Source: an uncultured delta proteobacterium (GTDB lineage: Bacteria; Myxococcota_A; Polyangia; Haliangiales; Haliangiaceae). From it: a DNA stretch of 64,000 nucleotides. Position numbers and translations under genes: made by a program. Location of the stretch: positions 22,343 to 86,342 of the forward strand of contig CAVYYE010000009.1 in NCBI GenBank assembly GCA_963772655.1, in the 5' to 3' direction. Every line of letters starts with the position of its first letter. Positions within the stretch are counted from its first letter, which is position 1. Below are positions 16,578 through 35,802 of the stretch, piece after piece. The notes below the pieces were generated by a model. It was not told where the DNA came from. It saw only the letters and a list, made by a program, of their open reading frames with translations, and ran no database searches.

Positions 16578-18356
16578 TCAGCGCTGCGTCGCGAGCCACG
16601 CCCGGGCGTCGCGGAGCGCCTCGGCGGCGGGCAGGTTGACGTCGACATCGACCGGCGCCCCCGTGATCTCCTCGAGCGAACGCCGCGCGTAGTAGCGAAC
16701 CAGCGGATAGGCGTGCGCCATCATCGGCGCGATCGCCGGGATCGCGGTGCGATCGCGCAGCTCGCCGTAGACACCGATCGCCACCGCCTGCTCGTGCGGC
16801 TTGCCGCGCACGAGCGTCGCGCGCATCGCGTTGACGTCGAGGTCTTCGCCGTACAGCGCGCGCAGCTTCGCGCGGTCGTAGCGCTTGTTCCACCACTGCT
16901 CCATCGTCGACACCAGCGACGACACCGACTTGTCGGCGTGGCACAGCGCGCACTCGAGCGGGCGATCGCGCTCGACCCGCTTCGGATCGTTCGGCGAACC
17001 GATCCGGTGGTAGCGCACGAGGGCGTAGTCGAGCCCCATGTTCTTCTTCGGCATGTGGCACGCCACGCACGACGTGCCGGTACTGCCCGCCGCGTGATGG
17101 CTGTGCTGCACGACGGTGGCCGCGATCGCCTGGTGGCACGACGCGCACAGCTTGTTGCCGGCCGGCGTCGCCATCGCGGCGAGCTTGGCGCGCGGATCCT
17201 CGGTGTGCGGGTCGTGGCACTGCGTGCACGCCATCGCGCTCGCGCAACCACCGATCTGGAAGTCGCGTCCCTCCCCGGAGTTGGTCGAGCTACCGCCGGG
17301 GTTTTTGCGCCGCACCCCGCCTTCCCAGGTCCACGGGTAGTGCGTGAACAGCACGGTGTGGCACTTCGCGCAGGTGTGGTTGATCCACTGCGCGCGATTT
17401 CCAGCCTCGCCGTTCGGCGGATCGATCCCGAACAAGCTGCTACGCACCGCGAACGACGGCAGGATCTTGGGATCGACGGCGTGCTCGCGCGATCCGTTGT
17501 GGCAGGCCTCGCAACCGATGCCGAGCTCGACAAGCTTGTCGGTATCGAGGCGATCGCGCGTGGTGCGCGCTGCCTCGCCGAGTAGCGCGTGCGCACCCGA
17601 GGCCTCCGGCTCGCCGCCGAGGAACACGATCTCGCGTCGCAGCGCGGACGCCAGGCCATCGTCGTCGTCGACGTGCGCCGGCCACAGGAACCGCGGCGGC
17701 ACCGCGCGGTCGCTGAGCTTCTGCTGGAACGGGGGAGCGTGCGGCCCGTAGAGCTCGTCGTAGTAGTTGGTCGCGAGCGGCAGCGTGTTGTGGCAACCGA
17801 TGCAGACCTGCTTCCACGCCGTGCCGACCACGAGGCGGGGTCGCTCCTTGACCATCACCGAGTAGCCTTTGTAGCGCCACGACTTGGTGTGGAACACGTA
17901 GGTCGCCGGCAGCACGCGCTCGGTGTGATCGCCGGAACCCTCGAGGCGGCCGACGAAATCCTCGCGGTAGCGCCCGCCGATCACCTTGGTCACGCGGTAG
18001 CGCTCGGTCCCTCCGGCCGTCGTCACGGTGACGATCCGCGCGGAGCCCTCGGTGGTCATCGTCGCGGACGTCGCCCCGACCCGCAGCGTCGCACCGGCGA
18101 ACGGCGCACGGATCTTCGCGGTCGCCGCGTCGCGCGTCATGTTGTGCATCGGCGACGCCATCCAGCGCTGGTACAGATCGCCGTGGCAATCGGCGCACGC
18201 CGTCGAACCGGCATAGTCGTCGCGCAGCACGTTGCTCGCGACGATGCCTCCGCCCGTGGTCCCGACCTCGTGCGGCCGCGCCGGCTTCGAGCCGCATGCC
18301 GCGATCACCACGATCGGCACGATCGACGCGACCGACGAGACCGACGAGATCTGCAC
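16578..18356 (-). CDS. Multiheme c-type cytochrome lipoprotein (8 CxxCH motifs)
   Basis: Motifs CADCH, CIGCH, CEACH, CAKCH, CTQCH, CASCH, CVACH, CALCH; lipobox 'VVIAACGS' near the N-terminus. Confidence 0.8.
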   Translation of the reverse strand: MQISSVSSVASIVPIVVIAACGSKPARPHEVGTTGGGIVASNVLRDDYAGSTACADCHGDLYQRWMASPMHNMTRDAATAKIRAPFAGATLRVGATSATMTTEGSARIVTVTTAGGTERYRVTKVIGGRYREDFVGRLEGSGDHTERVLPATYVFHTKSWRYKGYSVMVKERPRLVVGTAWKQVCIGCHNTLPLATNYYDELYGPHAPPFQQKLSDRAVPPRFLWPAHVDDDDGLASALRREIVFLGGEPEASGAHALLGEAARTTRDRLDTDKLVELGIGCEACHNGSREHAVDPKILPSFAVRSSLFGIDPPNGEAGNRAQWINHTCAKCHTVLFTHYPWTWEGGVRRKNPGGSSTNSGEGRDFQIGGCASAMACTQCHDPHTEDPRAKLAAMATPAGNKLCASCHQAIAATVVQHSHHAAGSTGTSCVACHMPKKNMGLDYALVRYHRIGSPNDPKRVERDRPLECALCHADKSVSSLVSTMEQWWNKRYDRAKLRALYGEDLDVNAMRATLVRGKPHEQAVAIGVYGELRDRTAIPAIAPMMAHAYPLVRYYARRSLEEITGAPVDVDVNLPAAEALRDARAWLATQR

Positions 18357-18421
18357 GACGACGGAGCTTACGCCCGCGGCGGATCGCCGTCATCTTCCGG
18401 ATCGCGCGCTATGCTCGGGGG

Positions 18422-19048
18422 GTGAGGTTCGCCGTGTCCGCCGCGCTCGTGATCGCTGCCACTTCGTGCGGCAAGAAGTCCACGCCCGAGGCGACGATCA
18501 TCGACCTGTCGACCTCGACCGCCCCGCTGCGAAACGACTTCGACGCCCACGCCGACGAGCCACGCTTCGTCACGTTGATCGCCCCCACGTGAACGTCCTG
18601 CATCCGCGGGGCCCGGGCGGTCTCGAAGATCCTCGTCCACCAGCTCCACGTGCGGACGTACGTGGTGTGGATCCCGATGCTCGACGCCGATGAGGGAAGC
18701 GAGGTGCCGTACGCCAGCACCAACGTCGGCGTGACGCCGCAGTACTTCGACGGCGCCATGCGGATCGGCAAGAGCCTCGCGCGTGCCGGCCGCATCGGCG
18801 TGCCGGTCTGGGACATCTACCTGTTCTATCCAGCCGGCGTGCGTTCGACCGAGGACGGCTTGCCGTTCCCCGAGCGCGCGATCGCGCAGGTCGGTGGCGT
18901 GCTGATCGCGACGCCGGCGGCCGCACCGCCCCGCGCCGATCAGTCTCGGCTGGATCCCGCGTGGAAGGCGAGCATGGCCGTGGTGGGTTCCCAGAACCAG
19001 TTCCCCGAGCTGCTCGCGAAGCTCGCGCACCAGCTCGCCGGTCGCTGA
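18422..19048 (+). CDS. Candidate selenoprotein: thioredoxin-fold lipoprotein with in-frame TGA (18590-18592) in a U-x-x-C motif
   Basis: Lipobox signal 'MRFAVSAALVIAATSCG'. Beta strand 'RFVTLIAPT' then TGA-TSC (UxxC), then a helix. A downstream 'GVPVWDIYLFYPAG' cis-Pro/beta motif is typical of the thioredoxin fold. Same frame continues 18593..19048. SECIS-like hairpin at 18608-18624. Confidence 0.5.
18608..18624 (+). promoter_or_regulatory. SECIS-like RNA hairpin GGGGCC-CGGGC-GGUCUC, 15 nt downstream of in-frame TGA
   Basis: 6-bp stem (two G.U pairs) with a 5-nt loop CGGGC. 15 of 17 nt identical to the hairpin at 29427-29443, which also follows an in-frame TGA. Confidence 0.45.
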
Positions 19049-28615: not shown

Positions 28616-29251
28616 GTGCGATTCGCGGTGCTCGGCCTTCTTTTTGGCCTGCTGATGTCGCCTGCGTGCGACCGCAACGAGGCCAAAGGCGGGGTCGGCA
28701 AGGCCACGAGCTCGTCGAGCCACAACAGCGACACGGAGCGGGAACAGGCCCGGTTCGACGCCGAGCGGCGGCCCGAGAAGGTCGTCGAGGCGTTGGGCAT
28801 CAAGCCCGGCTCGAAGGTCGCCGATATCGGTGCCGGTTCCGGCCTGCTCACGGTGCACCTCGCGCGCGCGGTCAAACCCAACGGCAAGGTCGTCGCGACG
28901 GACATCGATGAAGGTGTGCTCGAGCTCATGCGATCTCGGTTACAGGCCGCGGGGCTCGATCAGTACGTCGAACGCCGGGTCGTGGCGGAGGACACACCGG
29001 GTCTCGAGCCGGGCGAGTACGATGCGATCTTGCTCGCCGAGGTCGACCACTACTTCCGGGATCCGGTGACGTGGCTCAAGGCCGCATCGGTCGCGCTCAA
29101 GCCCAACGGACGTCTCGTGATCTCCAACCGGATCCACCACCGCCAGAAGTCGATGGCCGCTGCGGCCAAGGCCGGCCTCAAGCTGGTCAGCGAATCGACG
29201 CCGGTTCCCACGCACTTCATCGCAGTGTTCGTGGTGGAGCACGGAACGTGA
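28616..29251 (+). CDS. Class I SAM-dependent methyltransferase with lipoprotein-type signal
   Basis: 'VADIGAGSGLLTVHLA' SAM motif I, 'KPNGKVVATDID' motif II, 'LKPNGRLVIS' post-II; N-terminal 'LLFGLLMSPAC'. Confidence 0.65.
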   Translation: MRFAVLGLLFGLLMSPACDRNEAKGGVGKATSSSSHNSDTEREQARFDAERRPEKVVEALGIKPGSKVADIGAGSGLLTVHLARAVKPNGKVVATDIDEGVLELMRSRLQAAGLDQYVERRVVAEDTPGLEPGEYDAILLAEVDHYFRDPVTWLKAASVALKPNGRLVISNRIHHRQKSMAAAAKAGLKLVSESTPVPTHFIAVFVVEHGT

Positions 29252-29796
29252 GAGCTCCGACGTACGCCGGTGCCTGCCTGCTCGCCGCGTTCGCGGTCGG
29301 TACGCTCGCGGGCTGTCCGTCGAACAACGACAGCAACCCGAGCGTGCTGTGGCTCGCCCCCGACGGTTCCGAGGTTCGGGTCCACCTGGTGGACACCGAG
29401 CCGCCACCCTTTTGAGCACCTGGTGTGGGACCCGGGCGGTCCCAGGAAGCTCCGTACACGCTGCAGGCTCCGGTGCCCGCCGGCACCTACCACGTGATCT
29501 GCGACGCGATCATCATCAAGCCGGTCGACGTCACCTTCGAGCTCATCCATCGCTCGAAGGCCGGTGACACCAACCTGGCGACCTGGACCGAGCACTTCGA
29601 GCCACTGACCGGCGGTGTCTACGAGGCGCAGGCCTACGAGATCGATCAGGCAGCCCCGGCGATCGAGCTCGATGGCGACGACGAGTTCGTGTTCCGCTAC
29701 TCGGGCTCCAACACCGACACCGAGCAGGCGTTCATCCCCAACGGGGACGGCGAGCGCGCGGGTGGTCGGATCCCGAACATCACGCTTCCCGAATAG
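29248..29796 (+). CDS. Hypothetical lipoprotein interrupted by in-frame TGA (29413-29415). Candidate selenoprotein or split gene.
   Basis: Lipobox 'LLAAFAVGTLAGC'. ORFs 29248..29415 and 29416..29796 are in the same frame, separated only by TGA. SECIS-like hairpin at 29427-29443. Confidence 0.4.
29427..29443 (+). promoter_or_regulatory. SECIS-like RNA hairpin GGGACC-CGGGC-GGUCCC, 11 nt downstream of in-frame TGA
   Basis: Perfect 6-bp stem and CGGGC loop. It shares the 11-mer CCCGGGCGGTC with the hairpin at 18608-18624 but in a different codon phase. Confidence 0.45.
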
Positions 29797-32334: not shown

Positions 32335-35300
32335 CTAGACCCGGCTGAGCAACGGCGATCGATACCCCGCCTCCTCGGCGCGACGCGCGCGCTCGCCGAG
32401 CGCCCGGCACACCGCCGCGGCGAGGCCCGGGACGTCGTCGACTAGCTCGTCGAAGTCGACGCGCTCGAGCCGGATCAGCCGGGCGTGACGGACCGCGGTC
32501 AGATCGTGCGCGAGCGTGAGCGGCGCGACGCACGCCAGCTCGTCGACGACCTCGCCCTTCACGATCCGGCGCTCGCCGAGCGCGAGCTCGCCATCCTCGA
32601 CGAGGATCAGCGCGTCGATCAGGTCGCCGGCGGTGATCACGACGGCGCCGGACCGCACGGTCGCCCACCGCGCCCGTTCGGCGACGTCGGCGAGCTGGCG
32701 CGTGGTCAGCGCGGCGAGCAGGGGCACGCGGCCCAGGGCGATCAGCGATTCGACGCGTGTCGGCATGTCGGGTCCTTCCGGTTCGGAGCTGGCGGGGCGG
32801 TGGATCGCCTGGGTCACCCGCCGCAAGAGGTCGTCGGTGGTGGCGTTCTCGATCTCGGCGCGGGCGGCCTCCGCGATCGCTTCGCGATGGGCGCTGCGGC
32901 CGTGGGTGTCGAGCACGTGGAGCGCGAGCGCGCGCGCGAGGCGATCGCGACCGGCGAGCTCGGCGCGCATCACCGCGTCTCGCGTCGGCGGTGCGATGCC
33001 GGCGCGCTCGAGGGCGGCCGCACGATCGGCGGGCGTCAGGTCGTCGACGGCGTCGACCAGCCGGCCGACCAGCGCGCGCGGCAGCGCGGTCTCGAGGACG
33101 GCGAGCGTGCGCGCGCGTTCGTGCGCGCCGCGGGCATGTCCCCACGCCGCCGCTGCACGCGCGATCGCGGGCGAACGCCGGCGCGCCGACAGCAACAGCA
33201 ACACCGTGTGCGCGATCTCGCGCATGCGCTCGTCGAGCCGGCGCGCGAGCAGCTCGTCCGACGGTTCGACGAGCGTCGCGATCGCCGCGCGGGTCTGATC
33301 GAGTGCGTCGAGCTCGGCATCGATCAGTCGATCGAGCGCCGCCGGCGTGACGGGAAGCTCGGCGAGTAGTGCGGCCGCGCGATCGCGCGCTCGCCGGCGG
33401 CCCCACGCGGCGGTCGAGATCAGCTCGCCGGCCGCGGCCGGACCGAGCGCCGTCAACGCATCTTCCGCGGCACCACGCACGTCGTCGTCGGGCTCGCCGA
33501 GCGCGCGGGCGATCCGTCGCAGATCGTCGGGCTCGACGGTGTCGGGTCGTGGTCGTGGTCCGGATTCGTCGCAGGCTGCTTCGAGCAGCGCGCCGAACAG
33601 CCGGATCGCGGCGGCGACCTCGGTCGCGTCGTCGGTATCCTTGTCGGGCACGCGCATCAGCGATACCAGGGCGTGCTCGGGTGCGACCGGCGTGGCCGCG
33701 GCTTCGACCCGTTCGCGCGCGAGCTCGAGCAGGTCGGCGCGGAGCAGCGCGAGCTCGGCGCTGCGACGATCGCGAGCCCACGTCGCCACCCGCGCGAGCG
33801 CCGCGAAACCGGCCGCGCGACTGGCGACGTCCCCGCGTCCGCGGCGCAGCGCGCGAGCGAGGTGGCGGGTGGCCTCGAACGCGCGGTCGCTATCGTCGGC
33901 GGCGATCGCGCGCGCGATCTCGACGCCGAGCTCCTCGGTCGCGACCCGACCGGTCGGACCCGGATCGCGGACCGCGTCGGCGAGCGCCGCGAGCGCGGCT
34001 TCGTGATCGCCGGAGACCCGGGCGCGGGCGATGGCGGCAGTGATCACCACCGCCGCGGACGCGCTGGCCTGCCAGGTCGCGAGCTCGTCTTCGCGCACAC
34101 CGCCGGCGAGCCCCGCCGCGCGGATCGCGAGCTCGGGGTCGGCGCCATCGCGCGCGGCGGCGAGGAGCGCGGGGCCGTGCGCCCCTGCAGGCTCGTCGAG
34201 CGTGGAGATCAACGCGCGCCAGATCGGCGCACCACCGGTCGCGCACGCCGCGCGCACCAGGTCGGGTACCGCATCGACCCGGCCACGCTCGTGCAGCCGC
34301 GCCAGGAGCTCGGCCGCGCGCGCCGGGTGACGGCCGTCGAGCTCGCGGCGCAGCGTCGTGATCGCGCGCGCATCGACCAACGCGTCGACCTCGTCGGCGG
34401 CGTCGGGCCCCGACGCACGCGCGATCGCGAGCGCGGGGAGCTGGCGCGCGATCTGCCACGCCGCCACCAACCAGATCGCCGCGCTCGCCGCGGTCGCGAC
34501 GTAGAACACCGAGGGCGCACCGACGAGCACCGCCGCGATCACGCCGCCGAGCACCGCCCCTGCCCGCTTCGCGGTGCCGTCGAGGAACCCGCCGACGCGG
34601 CCGCGGATCGCGGTCGGTAGCAGCGTCTGGGTGAGCTTCTCGGCGGGCGACTCCACGCCCGCGTCGAGCACGCGCGCCTGGACCTGGGTCGCGATCGCGA
34701 TCGCGAAGATCGGCGCGATCACCAACCCGGTGCCGGCCGCCAGTGCGACCAGCGGCGCGATCAGGAGGACGTGACCGGTTCCGAGCCGCGAGAACAGGCG
34801 GGGCGCCACGACGAGCTGGACCACCAGCACGAGCACCTGGCTCCCACTGCGGATGCCACCGATCAGCGCCGCGAGATCGGCCGCGCCTTCCGCCCGCGAG
34901 ACGCCGGGATCGACGTGTGCCGACAGCGCCACGCCGAGCGCGAAGTACGCGAGCGATGCGAACGCACCGGCGGCCGCGACCACGATCGCGAGCTGTCGCG
35001 CGAGCGGCTGGCGGCGGACCGCACGCGCGCCGTCGCGCCACGACCGCGCGATCAACGTGCCCGACGCACGCAGCGCGTTTCCCGAACCGATGCTCGTCGG
35101 CGCGACTCGCCGGGTCGCCGCCAACCGCGACGCCCCGAGCCCCGCCAGCGCGAGCATCGCCGCCGCGCACACCAGCACGCCCGGTGCCCCGAACGTCGCG
35201 GCGAGCGGCACCACGGCGACCGCACCGATCGCGGCGCCCGCCCCGCCCGTCGCCGCGAGCAGCGGTACCAGCCGGCGACTGCGCCGCGCGTCGACGCGCT

Positions 35301-35760
35301 CCGCGATCACGACCCAGAACGCGAGGTCGGTGGCGGCCGCGAGCTGCTTGCCACCGACCAGCGTGGTCACCGCCGCGGCGCGTGGCATCTGGAACGACAG
35401 CGCCGCCAGACAGGCGAGTACGACCGCCGACACCGTGGCAAGCGACGCCAGCACGCGGCGGCGCTCCAGCCGATCCGCGAGACCGCCGACCACGGCGAGC
35501 ACCACCGCGAGCAGCGCGCTCGATACCGCGACCGCTTCGCCGAGGTGCGCGGGCCCGATCTCCGACAGGAACATCGCGTCGGCGGCCGACGCGCTCATCG
35601 CCGCTCCCGCCGAGGCCAGCGCGAACGTGGTCCCGGCGGTCACGACGAGCGAGCGTTCGCTCGGCTGGATCCCGATCCGGGCCAGTACCCCGGACGAGCC
35701 GGCGAGGCCTGCCGTCGCGCCCATCCTTCGAGGATCATACGCTACCCACGCCAACACCAC
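32335..35760 (-). CDS. Large fusion protein: MFS-like 12-TM transporter domain + long alpha-helical (HEAT/ARM-like) region + C-terminal cyclic-nucleotide-binding domain
   Basis: N-terminal ~420 aa of repeated hydrophobic helices; central Ala/Arg-rich helical repeats; C-terminal 'LIALGRVPLLAALTTRQLADVAERARWATVRSGAVVITAGDLIDALILVEDGELAL' cNMP-binding-like fold. Confidence 0.5.
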   Translation of the reverse strand: MVLAWVAYDPRRMGATAGLAGSSGVLARIGIQPSERSLVVTAGTTFALASAGAAMSASAADAMFLSEIGPAHLGEAVAVSSALLAVVLAVVGGLADRLERRRVLASLATVSAVVLACLAALSFQMPRAAAVTTLVGGKQLAAATDLAFWVVIAERVDARRSRRLVPLLAATGGAGAAIGAVAVVPLAATFGAPGVLVCAAAMLALAGLGASRLAATRRVAPTSIGSGNALRASGTLIARSWRDGARAVRRQPLARQLAIVVAAAGAFASLAYFALGVALSAHVDPGVSRAEGAADLAALIGGIRSGSQVLVLVVQLVVAPRLFSRLGTGHVLLIAPLVALAAGTGLVIAPIFAIAIATQVQARVLDAGVESPAEKLTQTLLPTAIRGRVGGFLDGTAKRAGAVLGGVIAAVLVGAPSVFYVATAASAAIWLVAAWQIARQLPALAIARASGPDAADEVDALVDARAITTLRRELDGRHPARAAELLARLHERGRVDAVPDLVRAACATGGAPIWRALISTLDEPAGAHGPALLAAARDGADPELAIRAAGLAGGVREDELATWQASASAAVVITAAIARARVSGDHEAALAALADAVRDPGPTGRVATEELGVEIARAIAADDSDRAFEATRHLARALRRGRGDVASRAAGFAALARVATWARDRRSAELALLRADLLELARERVEAAATPVAPEHALVSLMRVPDKDTDDATEVAAAIRLFGALLEAACDESGPRPRPDTVEPDDLRRIARALGEPDDDVRGAAEDALTALGPAAAGELISTAAWGRRRARDRAAALLAELPVTPAALDRLIDAELDALDQTRAAIATLVEPSDELLARRLDERMREIAHTVLLLLSARRRSPAIARAAAAWGHARGAHERARTLAVLETALPRALVGRLVDAVDDLTPADRAAALERAGIAPPTRDAVMRAELAGRDRLARALALHVLDTHGRSAHREAIAEAARAEIENATTDDLLRRVTQAIHRPASSEPEGPDMPTRVESLIALGRVPLLAALTTRQLADVAERARWATVRSGAVVITAGDLIDALILVEDGELALGERRIVKGEVVDELACVAPLTLAHDLTAVRHARLIRLERVDFDELVDDVPGLAAAVCRALGERARRAEEAGYRSPLLSRV

Positions 35761-35802
35761 CTGGCTCGGGGTGGGTGGCTCGTGTCATGCTCGGGAGACC
35801 CG

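Follow-up and report, generated by a model that had tools for sequence, protein, structure and literature searches.

Bacterial selenocysteine (Sec) insertion sequence (SECIS) elements are described by a compact model: a hairpin with a loop of 3–9 nucleotides (nt) and a stem of 4–16 bp, a minimum free energy (MFE) of −7.5 kcal/mol or below, at least one G in loop positions 1–2, usually followed by G or U, and 16–37 nt from UGA to apical loop (bSECISearch criteria summarised in PMC13188914). The minimal Escherichia coli element is a 17-nt stem–loop at nt 15–31, starting 11 nt from the UGA; its loop contains G23 and U24, and U17 is bulged (PMC8659212; sequence given in PMC10945757). Here we describe a 64-kb stretch of contig CAVYYE010000009.1 (the window; 70% G+C), from an uncultured delta proteobacterium of the Haliangiaceae, in which an open reading frame (ORF) at 29248–29796 runs through an in-frame TGA and carries a hairpin directly after it. 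We put the probability that this ORF is a single gene for a selenocysteine-containing lipoprotein with a SECIS hairpin at about 0.85. Its UGA is almost certainly decoded as selenocysteine, and the 123-residue protein listed in databases would then really be a 182-residue secreted lipoprotein.

Two hairpins in the window resemble the bacterial model, one after TGA 29413 and another after TGA 18590, in a gene at 18422–19048. The first is sited in the coding region just past the UGA, with a 3–5-nt loop, a 6–8-bp stem and G-G in the loop. From UGA to loop there are 17–18 nt in the 29413 element and 21 nt in the 18590 element, both in range, and the MFE of 23-nt segments is −12.3 and −10.0 kcal/mol, respectively; the two hairpins lie within all four quantitative limits. 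The model is a loose one that would admit many GC-rich hairpins; the decisive support here is covariation, together with the disappearance of the hairpin from homologues that lack the UGA.

The UGA codon of the lipoprotein gene

An earlier, sequence-only reading of the window had proposed that a lipoprotein ORF is split here by a single TGA, and translation bears this out. The codon at 29413–29415 is the sole in-frame stop: the frame reads …VDTEPPPF up to it and continues as APGVGPGRSQEAPYTL… to the final TAG. The GTG start overlaps the stop of the preceding methyltransferase gene (GTGA), and the predicted N terminus, …AVGTLAGC (ending in Cys23), satisfies the lipobox pattern [LVI][ASTVI][GAS]-C. 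Across relatives, an LAGC(P) or LGGC lipobox is kept in the upstream in-frame ORF.

The comparison DNA comprised 16 loci of GTDB genomes (Kofleriaceae, Haliangiales and ‘Myxococcales’ metagenome-assembled genomes) and 80 metagenome contigs, mostly from soil, rhizosphere and wetland. Together these gave 97 gene copies from 96 loci, one of which (L076) contributes two tandem copies; these paralogues (778–837 and 1322–1381) each have their own lipoprotein signal, in-frame TGA and hairpin. Related copies are 54–75% identical in amino acid sequence to the window domain. All 97 have an in-frame TGA at the homologous position, and TAA or TAG occupies that site in none of them. Orthologues with ordinary stops and two separate genes, for which the sequence-only reading had proposed a check, were not found among these copies; protein conservation instead extends across the TGA.

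Upstream of the TGA, the same frame in relatives encodes the lipobox LAGCP, the motif NPxxLWLAxDxxE… and EPxP[F/Y]; downstream it reads APGVG. The three codons after the TGA (GCN CCN GGN) have entropies of 0.03, 0.00 and 1.42 bits at codon positions 1, 2 and 3, and per-codon-position entropy reveals wobble-only variation on both flanks of the TGA. Searching with the read-through protein gave 282 homologues; of the best 120, almost all are 121–126 amino acids long. Proteins of this length correspond to the ORF for which gene callers take GTG 29425, the fourth codon past the TGA, as the start. In several relatives, this supposed start is GTA, ATC, CTG or GCG, so the GTG encodes valine within the gene and does not initiate translation.

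Many Pfam-supported genes in the window themselves end in TGA, including those for a methyltransferase, ArgJ/kinase, PdxA and a PPDK_N-like protein. TGA is thus an ordinary stop here, and the genetic code is standard. A composition scan of every TGA in the window flagged four sites, with a sense-frame coding signal on both sides at two only (29413 and 18590); the other two, on the minus strand, resemble antisense shadows of plus-strand genes.

The hairpin and its loss in homologues without UGA

The hairpin, GGGACC-CGGGC-GGTCCC, lies at 29427–29443, exactly 11 nt past the TGA, and the coordinates and spacing given in the sequence-only reading are exact. Its loop is the 5-nt C-GGG-C, compared with a 3-nt GGU in most relatives, and the stem comprises 6–8 bp. 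An alignment of the region from −9 to +51 relative to the TGA comprised 88 distinct sequences; the TGA-to-hairpin gap is 11 nt in the window and in all 88 relatives, with zero indels between. The family consensus at nt 15–31 is GGGRYCC-GGU-GGRUCYC, in which loop base 1 (G, alignment column 31) is invariant and loop base 2 (G, column 32) is at least 90% conserved.

Judged by this alignment, the hairpin is conserved through compensatory base-pair changes. In an 8-bp structure (nt 14–21/25–32), 94.7% of cells are standard pairs, against 41–73% (at most 72.6%) when the 3′ partners are slid. Double-sided changes occur in 37 cells, compared with 6.4 ± 2.1 in shuffles, and the covariation score was reached by none of 500 shuffles. 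The pair nt 19:27 changes state at least 16 times on a neighbour-joining tree of the downstream domain. It joins a synonymous Gly wobble base to the first position of a Pro/Ser/Ala/Thr codon, where substitutions change the amino acid, a coupling that selection on the protein could not produce. RNAalifold independently gave the same upper stem; a lower SECIS helix received no RNAalifold support.

A covariance model was built from 58 hairpins of other genomes, with the window excluded, and used for an unfiltered scan of both window strands (128 kb). The best match is at 29424–29446 (32.5 bits, E = 8e-6), followed by 18605–18627 (18.0 bits, E = 0.04) and then a match of 14.6 bits. Applied to 97 kb of related DNA, only cognate hairpins exceed 16 bits, save for one background match of 17.3 bits in L101. 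The sequence-only reading had asked whether such a motif is simply common and unrelated to TGA codons; every strong match to the model in the 64-kb window and ~97 kb of related DNA follows an in-frame TGA.

More distant homologues were sought with a word-index search covering 5.8 billion sequences and an exhaustive HMMER profile search of 1.84 billion cluster representatives, the latter yielding 128 family members. Even those at 26–40% identity begin at the same M/V-G-x-G position, indicating that the stop is retained deep in the family. A sense codon at the TGA site was seen in two proteins only: P0178 has Ser (EPPPF-S-PAGIG, TCG) and P0188 has Gln (EPAPF-Q-APGTG, CAA). Both are single, fused, full-length proteins with a lipoprotein signal, showing that the read-through product is the functional unit. 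The hairpin is absent from both. It is tied to the TGA, being lost where the UGA is lost.

The second UGA gene and alternative readings

The gene at 18422–19048 encodes …FVTLIAPT-U-TSC-IRGARAV…, and the full-length homologues P0135 and P0137 have a Cys aligned to TGA 18590 within a CxxC motif (SPT-C-GAC). Read from these alignments, the locus is a classic Sec/Cys pair in a predicted UxxC redox motif, and the Cys homologues point to an organism that decodes UGA as Sec. TGA 18590 is conserved in L101, L102, L103, L105 and L108. A further UxxC orthologue (L104, ~1380–1520) keeps SPS-TGA-RPC and then, through an added segment, falls out of frame with the conserved C-terminal part; this could be a pseudogene or a misassembly.

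The hairpin of this second gene, GGGGCC-CGGGC-GGTCTC at 18608–18624, matches that at 29427–29443 in 15 of 17 positions and shares with it the 11-mer CCCGGGCGGTC; the two begin at codon positions 1 and 3, respectively, all as the sequence-only reading had described. That reading took the likeness for RNA-level conservation, not protein homology, and argued against coincidence. The proteins are indeed unrelated (BLASTP E = 41). Within the window, the degenerate 17-mer occurs only twice, even with 2 mismatches allowed (0.29 expected; 1 of 100 shuffles reached 2 matches), and the 11-mer likewise only twice. The near-identity of the two window copies is nonetheless partly local coincidence: the 18590 family has the consensus GGGGCC-CGKGC-GGUCY, against GGGRCCC-GGU-GGGUCYC for the 29413 family across genomes. 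By score, the 18608–18624 hairpin is a borderline match, and chance is unlikely because it stands directly after the only other in-frame TGA; it is present in Sec forms and reduced to ~3 bp in two Cys forms. The further proposal that both hairpins are SECIS-like thus holds well at 29427, with compensatory changes and a fit to the published model, and much less so at 18608.

Around P0135 and P0137 the neighbourhood differs, with an ArsR/SmtB-type regulator (HTH_5) beside the gene and, in one case, also a MerB organomercurial lyase (L100). There are hints that the 18422–19048 product may be a metal- or mercury-related thiol/selenol protein. A multihaem cytochrome c gene (Paired_CXXCH, Cytochrome_C7; 16578–18389, minus strand) is divergently adjacent to the UxxC gene, a pairing found again in L101, L102 and L103, where a glutathione S-transferase gene often intervenes.

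Several observations weigh against selenocysteine insertion at 29413 or against the SECIS assignment. Pfam searches of ~30 window ORFs found no selA, selB or selD within the 64 kb, and a tRNA search of the same stretch found no tRNA, hence no tRNA-Sec. Neither read-through protein matched a Pfam or NCBIfam family, and Rfam gave no match either (whole window at gathering threshold; 29350–29520 by E-value). In a structure model of the Gln homologue, the region of the Sec site has a predicted local distance difference test score (pLDDT) below 50. Single-sequence folding energies are no better than those of shuffles in 70% GC DNA (z = −0.7 and +0.4 for the two hairpins). Folding energy was consequently dropped as evidence, and support for the hairpin is comparative, not thermodynamic. 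Relative to E. coli, the window copy has G in place of U at nt 24, within its 5-nt loop CGGGC, and the bulged U17 has no counterpart, nt 17 being a paired G (G-C or G-U at columns 26:41 in 88/88). The 18608–18624 hairpin has much weaker support, with few sequences and no compensatory changes, and its nucleotide conservation partly reflects the conserved peptide GARAV. A competing stem (GUCCUGC/GCGGGGC, 18595–18612), directly after the UGA, uses the same G-run and comes out as the MFE structure when 44 nt are folded; L101, too, has a predicted upstream stem of this kind. Finally, neither the word-index search nor the HMMER search revealed a Cys homologue of the 29248–29796 family, whereas nearly all selenoproteins have Cys homologues (PMC13188914). 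This atypical absence leaves a small probability for read-through independent of Sec.

In such a selenium-free scheme, the hairpin would stimulate near-cognate decoding of the UGA (for example, as Trp, Arg or Cys), so that the full-length protein and a 55-residue lipopeptide would be made in regulated proportions. The missing Cys form fits this, as do the Ser and Gln forms, which suggest that little depends on the chemistry of this residue, and the lack of Sec machinery within the window. Yet the element matches the SECIS model and the E. coli minimal geometry, including the invariant loop G; the stop is always UGA; and the UxxC gene of the same genome, with CxxC homologues and a similar hairpin, is far better explained by Sec. 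Read-through stimulated by a hairpin in this way is not known as an established mechanism in bacteria, and we consider it improbable here. Less probable again is a pair of genes, one for a 55-residue lipopeptide ending at the TGA and one for a 123-residue cytoplasmic protein from GTG 29425, perhaps coupled by termination–reinitiation. Gene callers do predict ~123-residue proteins for essentially all family members, and some records call the 55-residue ORF separately. Against this stand the replacement of the putative start codon in several relatives, the pure wobble-only variation of the three codons before it, and a frame and 9-nt spacing that are invariant over the 97 copies; moreover, the Ser and Gln homologues are fused behind the same signal peptide, and two genes would give the hairpin covariation no role.

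An in-frame stop in a single sequence is most often a pseudogene, a sequencing or assembly error, or a reassigned UGA, but comparative data have already refuted these explanations and we give them almost no weight. Many samples yield the same TGA, at 96 independent loci in all, and the sequence on either side of it is under purifying selection; TGA also ends many well-supported window genes. Taken together, the conserved TGA, the wobble-only flanks, the non-start ‘GTG’ and the standard code rule out a pseudogene, an error of sequencing, codon reassignment and a pair of independent genes.

Under selenocysteine insertion, a ribosome arriving at UGA 29413 would have the 17-nt hairpin at mRNA nt 15–31, just outside it, where the G-rich apical loop would be offered to SelB carrying Sec-tRNA(Sec). 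We infer that SelB binds this hairpin and that Sec is the residue inserted at position 56; SelB delivery would thus place selenocysteine where translation would otherwise terminate. The product would be a 182-residue precursor formed by a signal peptide whose lipobox ends in Cys23, a short and conserved segment of the N-terminal part holding Sec56 in the motif EPxP[F/Y]-U-APGVG, and a β-sandwich C terminus. The mature protein would be exported and lipid-anchored, and a similar hairpin would serve the second, unrelated UxxC selenoprotein of the same organism.

Genomic setting and comparison with known selenoproteins

Table 1 Coordinates and supporting evidence for features of the two loci, with base-pair counts for the hairpin after TGA 29413
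Feature	Position	Strand	Basis
Predicted selenoprotein lipoprotein gene, 182 codons, GTG start to TAG 29794–29796 via TGA 29413	29248–29796	+	Translation; relatives
Predicted lipoprotein signal peptide, lipobox L-A-G-C, Cys23 codon TGT 29314–29316	29248–29316	+	Sequence; lipobox conserved in relatives
In-frame UGA, putative selenocysteine codon, residue 56, context EPPPF-U-APGVG	29413–29415	+	Invariant in 88 distinct aligned sequences
SECIS-type hairpin; core 29427–29443 = nt 15–31 from U of UGA; U14–A32 closing pair	29426–29444	+	Covariation; covariance model
Hairpin pair: C-G 56, U-A 21, G-C 6, A-U 1	nt 19:27		88-sequence alignment
Hairpin pair: C-G 82, U-A 4	nt 20:26		88-sequence alignment
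Hairpin pair: G-C 78, C-G 3, A-U 1	nt 15:31		88-sequence alignment
C-terminal β-sandwich (jelly-roll) domain; separate 123-residue protein of databases	29425–29793	+	
SAM-dependent methyltransferase, translationally coupled, conserved neighbour	28616–29251	+	Pfam Methyltransf_12/31/11
Second, unrelated predicted selenoprotein gene, lipoprotein-like, motif APT-U-TSC (UxxC), TGA 18590–18592	18422–19048	+	Translation; Cys homologues
Candidate SECIS hairpin GGGGCC-CGGGC-GGUCUC, 15 nt after UGA	18608–18624	+	Second-best covariance-model match, 18 bits, E = 0.04

Gene order in ~40 related loci is an ORF, a twin-arginine translocation (TAT)-signal protein, an S-adenosylmethionine (SAM) methyltransferase, the selenoprotein and a PPDK_N-like protein. 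The window methyltransferase has a hydrophobic, signal-peptide-like N terminus (MRFAVLGLLFGLLMSPAC…); export would be unusual for a SAM methyltransferase. The weak NCBIfam matches of this protein, all far below cut-off, include ArsM-type and methyltransferase–selenoprotein fusion models. Many relatives have an MFS-type transporter gene of ~1.3 kb between the selenoprotein and PPDK_N-like genes (for example, L001 3370–4760, minus strand). The window has no MFS insert there, and a large MFS–cNMP-binding fusion lies at 32335–35784 (minus strand).

All public records that we encountered shorten the gene to its C-terminal 123 residues. They omit both signal peptide and selenocysteine, so that localisation and chemistry would be mis-described for hundreds of sequences. 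JGI gives several 123-residue records (for example, P0038, P0043 and P0062) the name ‘FtsP/CotA-like multicopper oxidase with cupredoxin domain’, a label that has no support from Pfam or from a fold search.

D27, D35 and an IPNGDG motif are among the invariant residues; a nearby Cys, in YHVIC, is not conserved among relatives. Our guess is that the protein provides an extracytoplasmic, lipid-anchored selenol for redox or metal/metalloid chemistry, possibly together with the co-transcribed methyltransferase. Most bacterial selenoproteins are a catalytic upgrade of a thiol enzyme. A more far-reaching idea, which we hold only tentatively and think rather unlikely, is that the family is essentially Sec-only, with no Cys counterpart in ~15 billion predicted proteins, lipid-anchored outside the cytoplasm in aerobic soil myxobacteria and always co-transcribed with a signal-peptide-bearing SAM methyltransferase. 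If so, it would imply an obligately selenium-dependent chemistry, such as extracytoplasmic capture or methylation of metals or metalloids, in which sulfur could not replace selenium. With no Cys form, the family is well suited to the question of when selenium cannot be substituted.

The locus would add an apparently uncatalogued selenoprotein family, probably two with the neighbouring UxxC gene, and would place the Sec trait in soil Kofleriaceae/Haliangiales. It also gives this lineage an unusually clean SECIS consensus, backed by covariation, with which the rest of the selenoproteome could be sought. NCBIfam release 20 has no curated selenoprotein model that matches the 29248–29796 product, and we found no literature on selenocysteine in Myxococcota, Kofleria or Haliangium, or on selenoproteins as lipoproteins.

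Compared with the SelB-binding upper stem–loop of E. coli fdhF, the family hairpin likewise lies in the coding region, spans 17 nt at nt 15–31 and starts 11 nt after the UGA. The fdhF loop is GGUC, against GGU (G22-G23-U24) in most family members; G23 is present throughout the family, and nt 24 is U in most relatives and C in some. The family stem differs in being a continuous G/C-rich helix without primary-sequence similarity to that of E. coli, and the family shows no conserved lower helix.

Of the two window proteins, the product of 18422–19048 resembles the thioredoxin-like/thiol-disulfide UxxC selenoproteins, with UxxC after a hydrophobic strand and CxxC homologues, whereas the 29248–29796 protein has no xxC partner or redox motif. 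A fold search gave nothing beyond generic β-sandwich matches. Those to carbohydrate-binding-module-like domains (5–17% identity) permit no functional inference, and the conserved IPNGDG, D27 and D35 are specific to the family. A further parallel is with the ‘hypothetical’ selenoproteins from metagenomes (GOS, OS_HP families; PMC13188914), likewise recognised only by a conserved in-frame UGA and a SECIS-like hairpin. Unlike these, the 29248 family is, as far as seen, limited to Kofleriaceae/Haliangiales-type Myxococcota of soil and wetland, is predicted to be lipid-anchored and has no Cys form. The recoding mechanism is thus one already known, and the protein family appears new, though it is possibly listed anonymously in a selenoprotein database.

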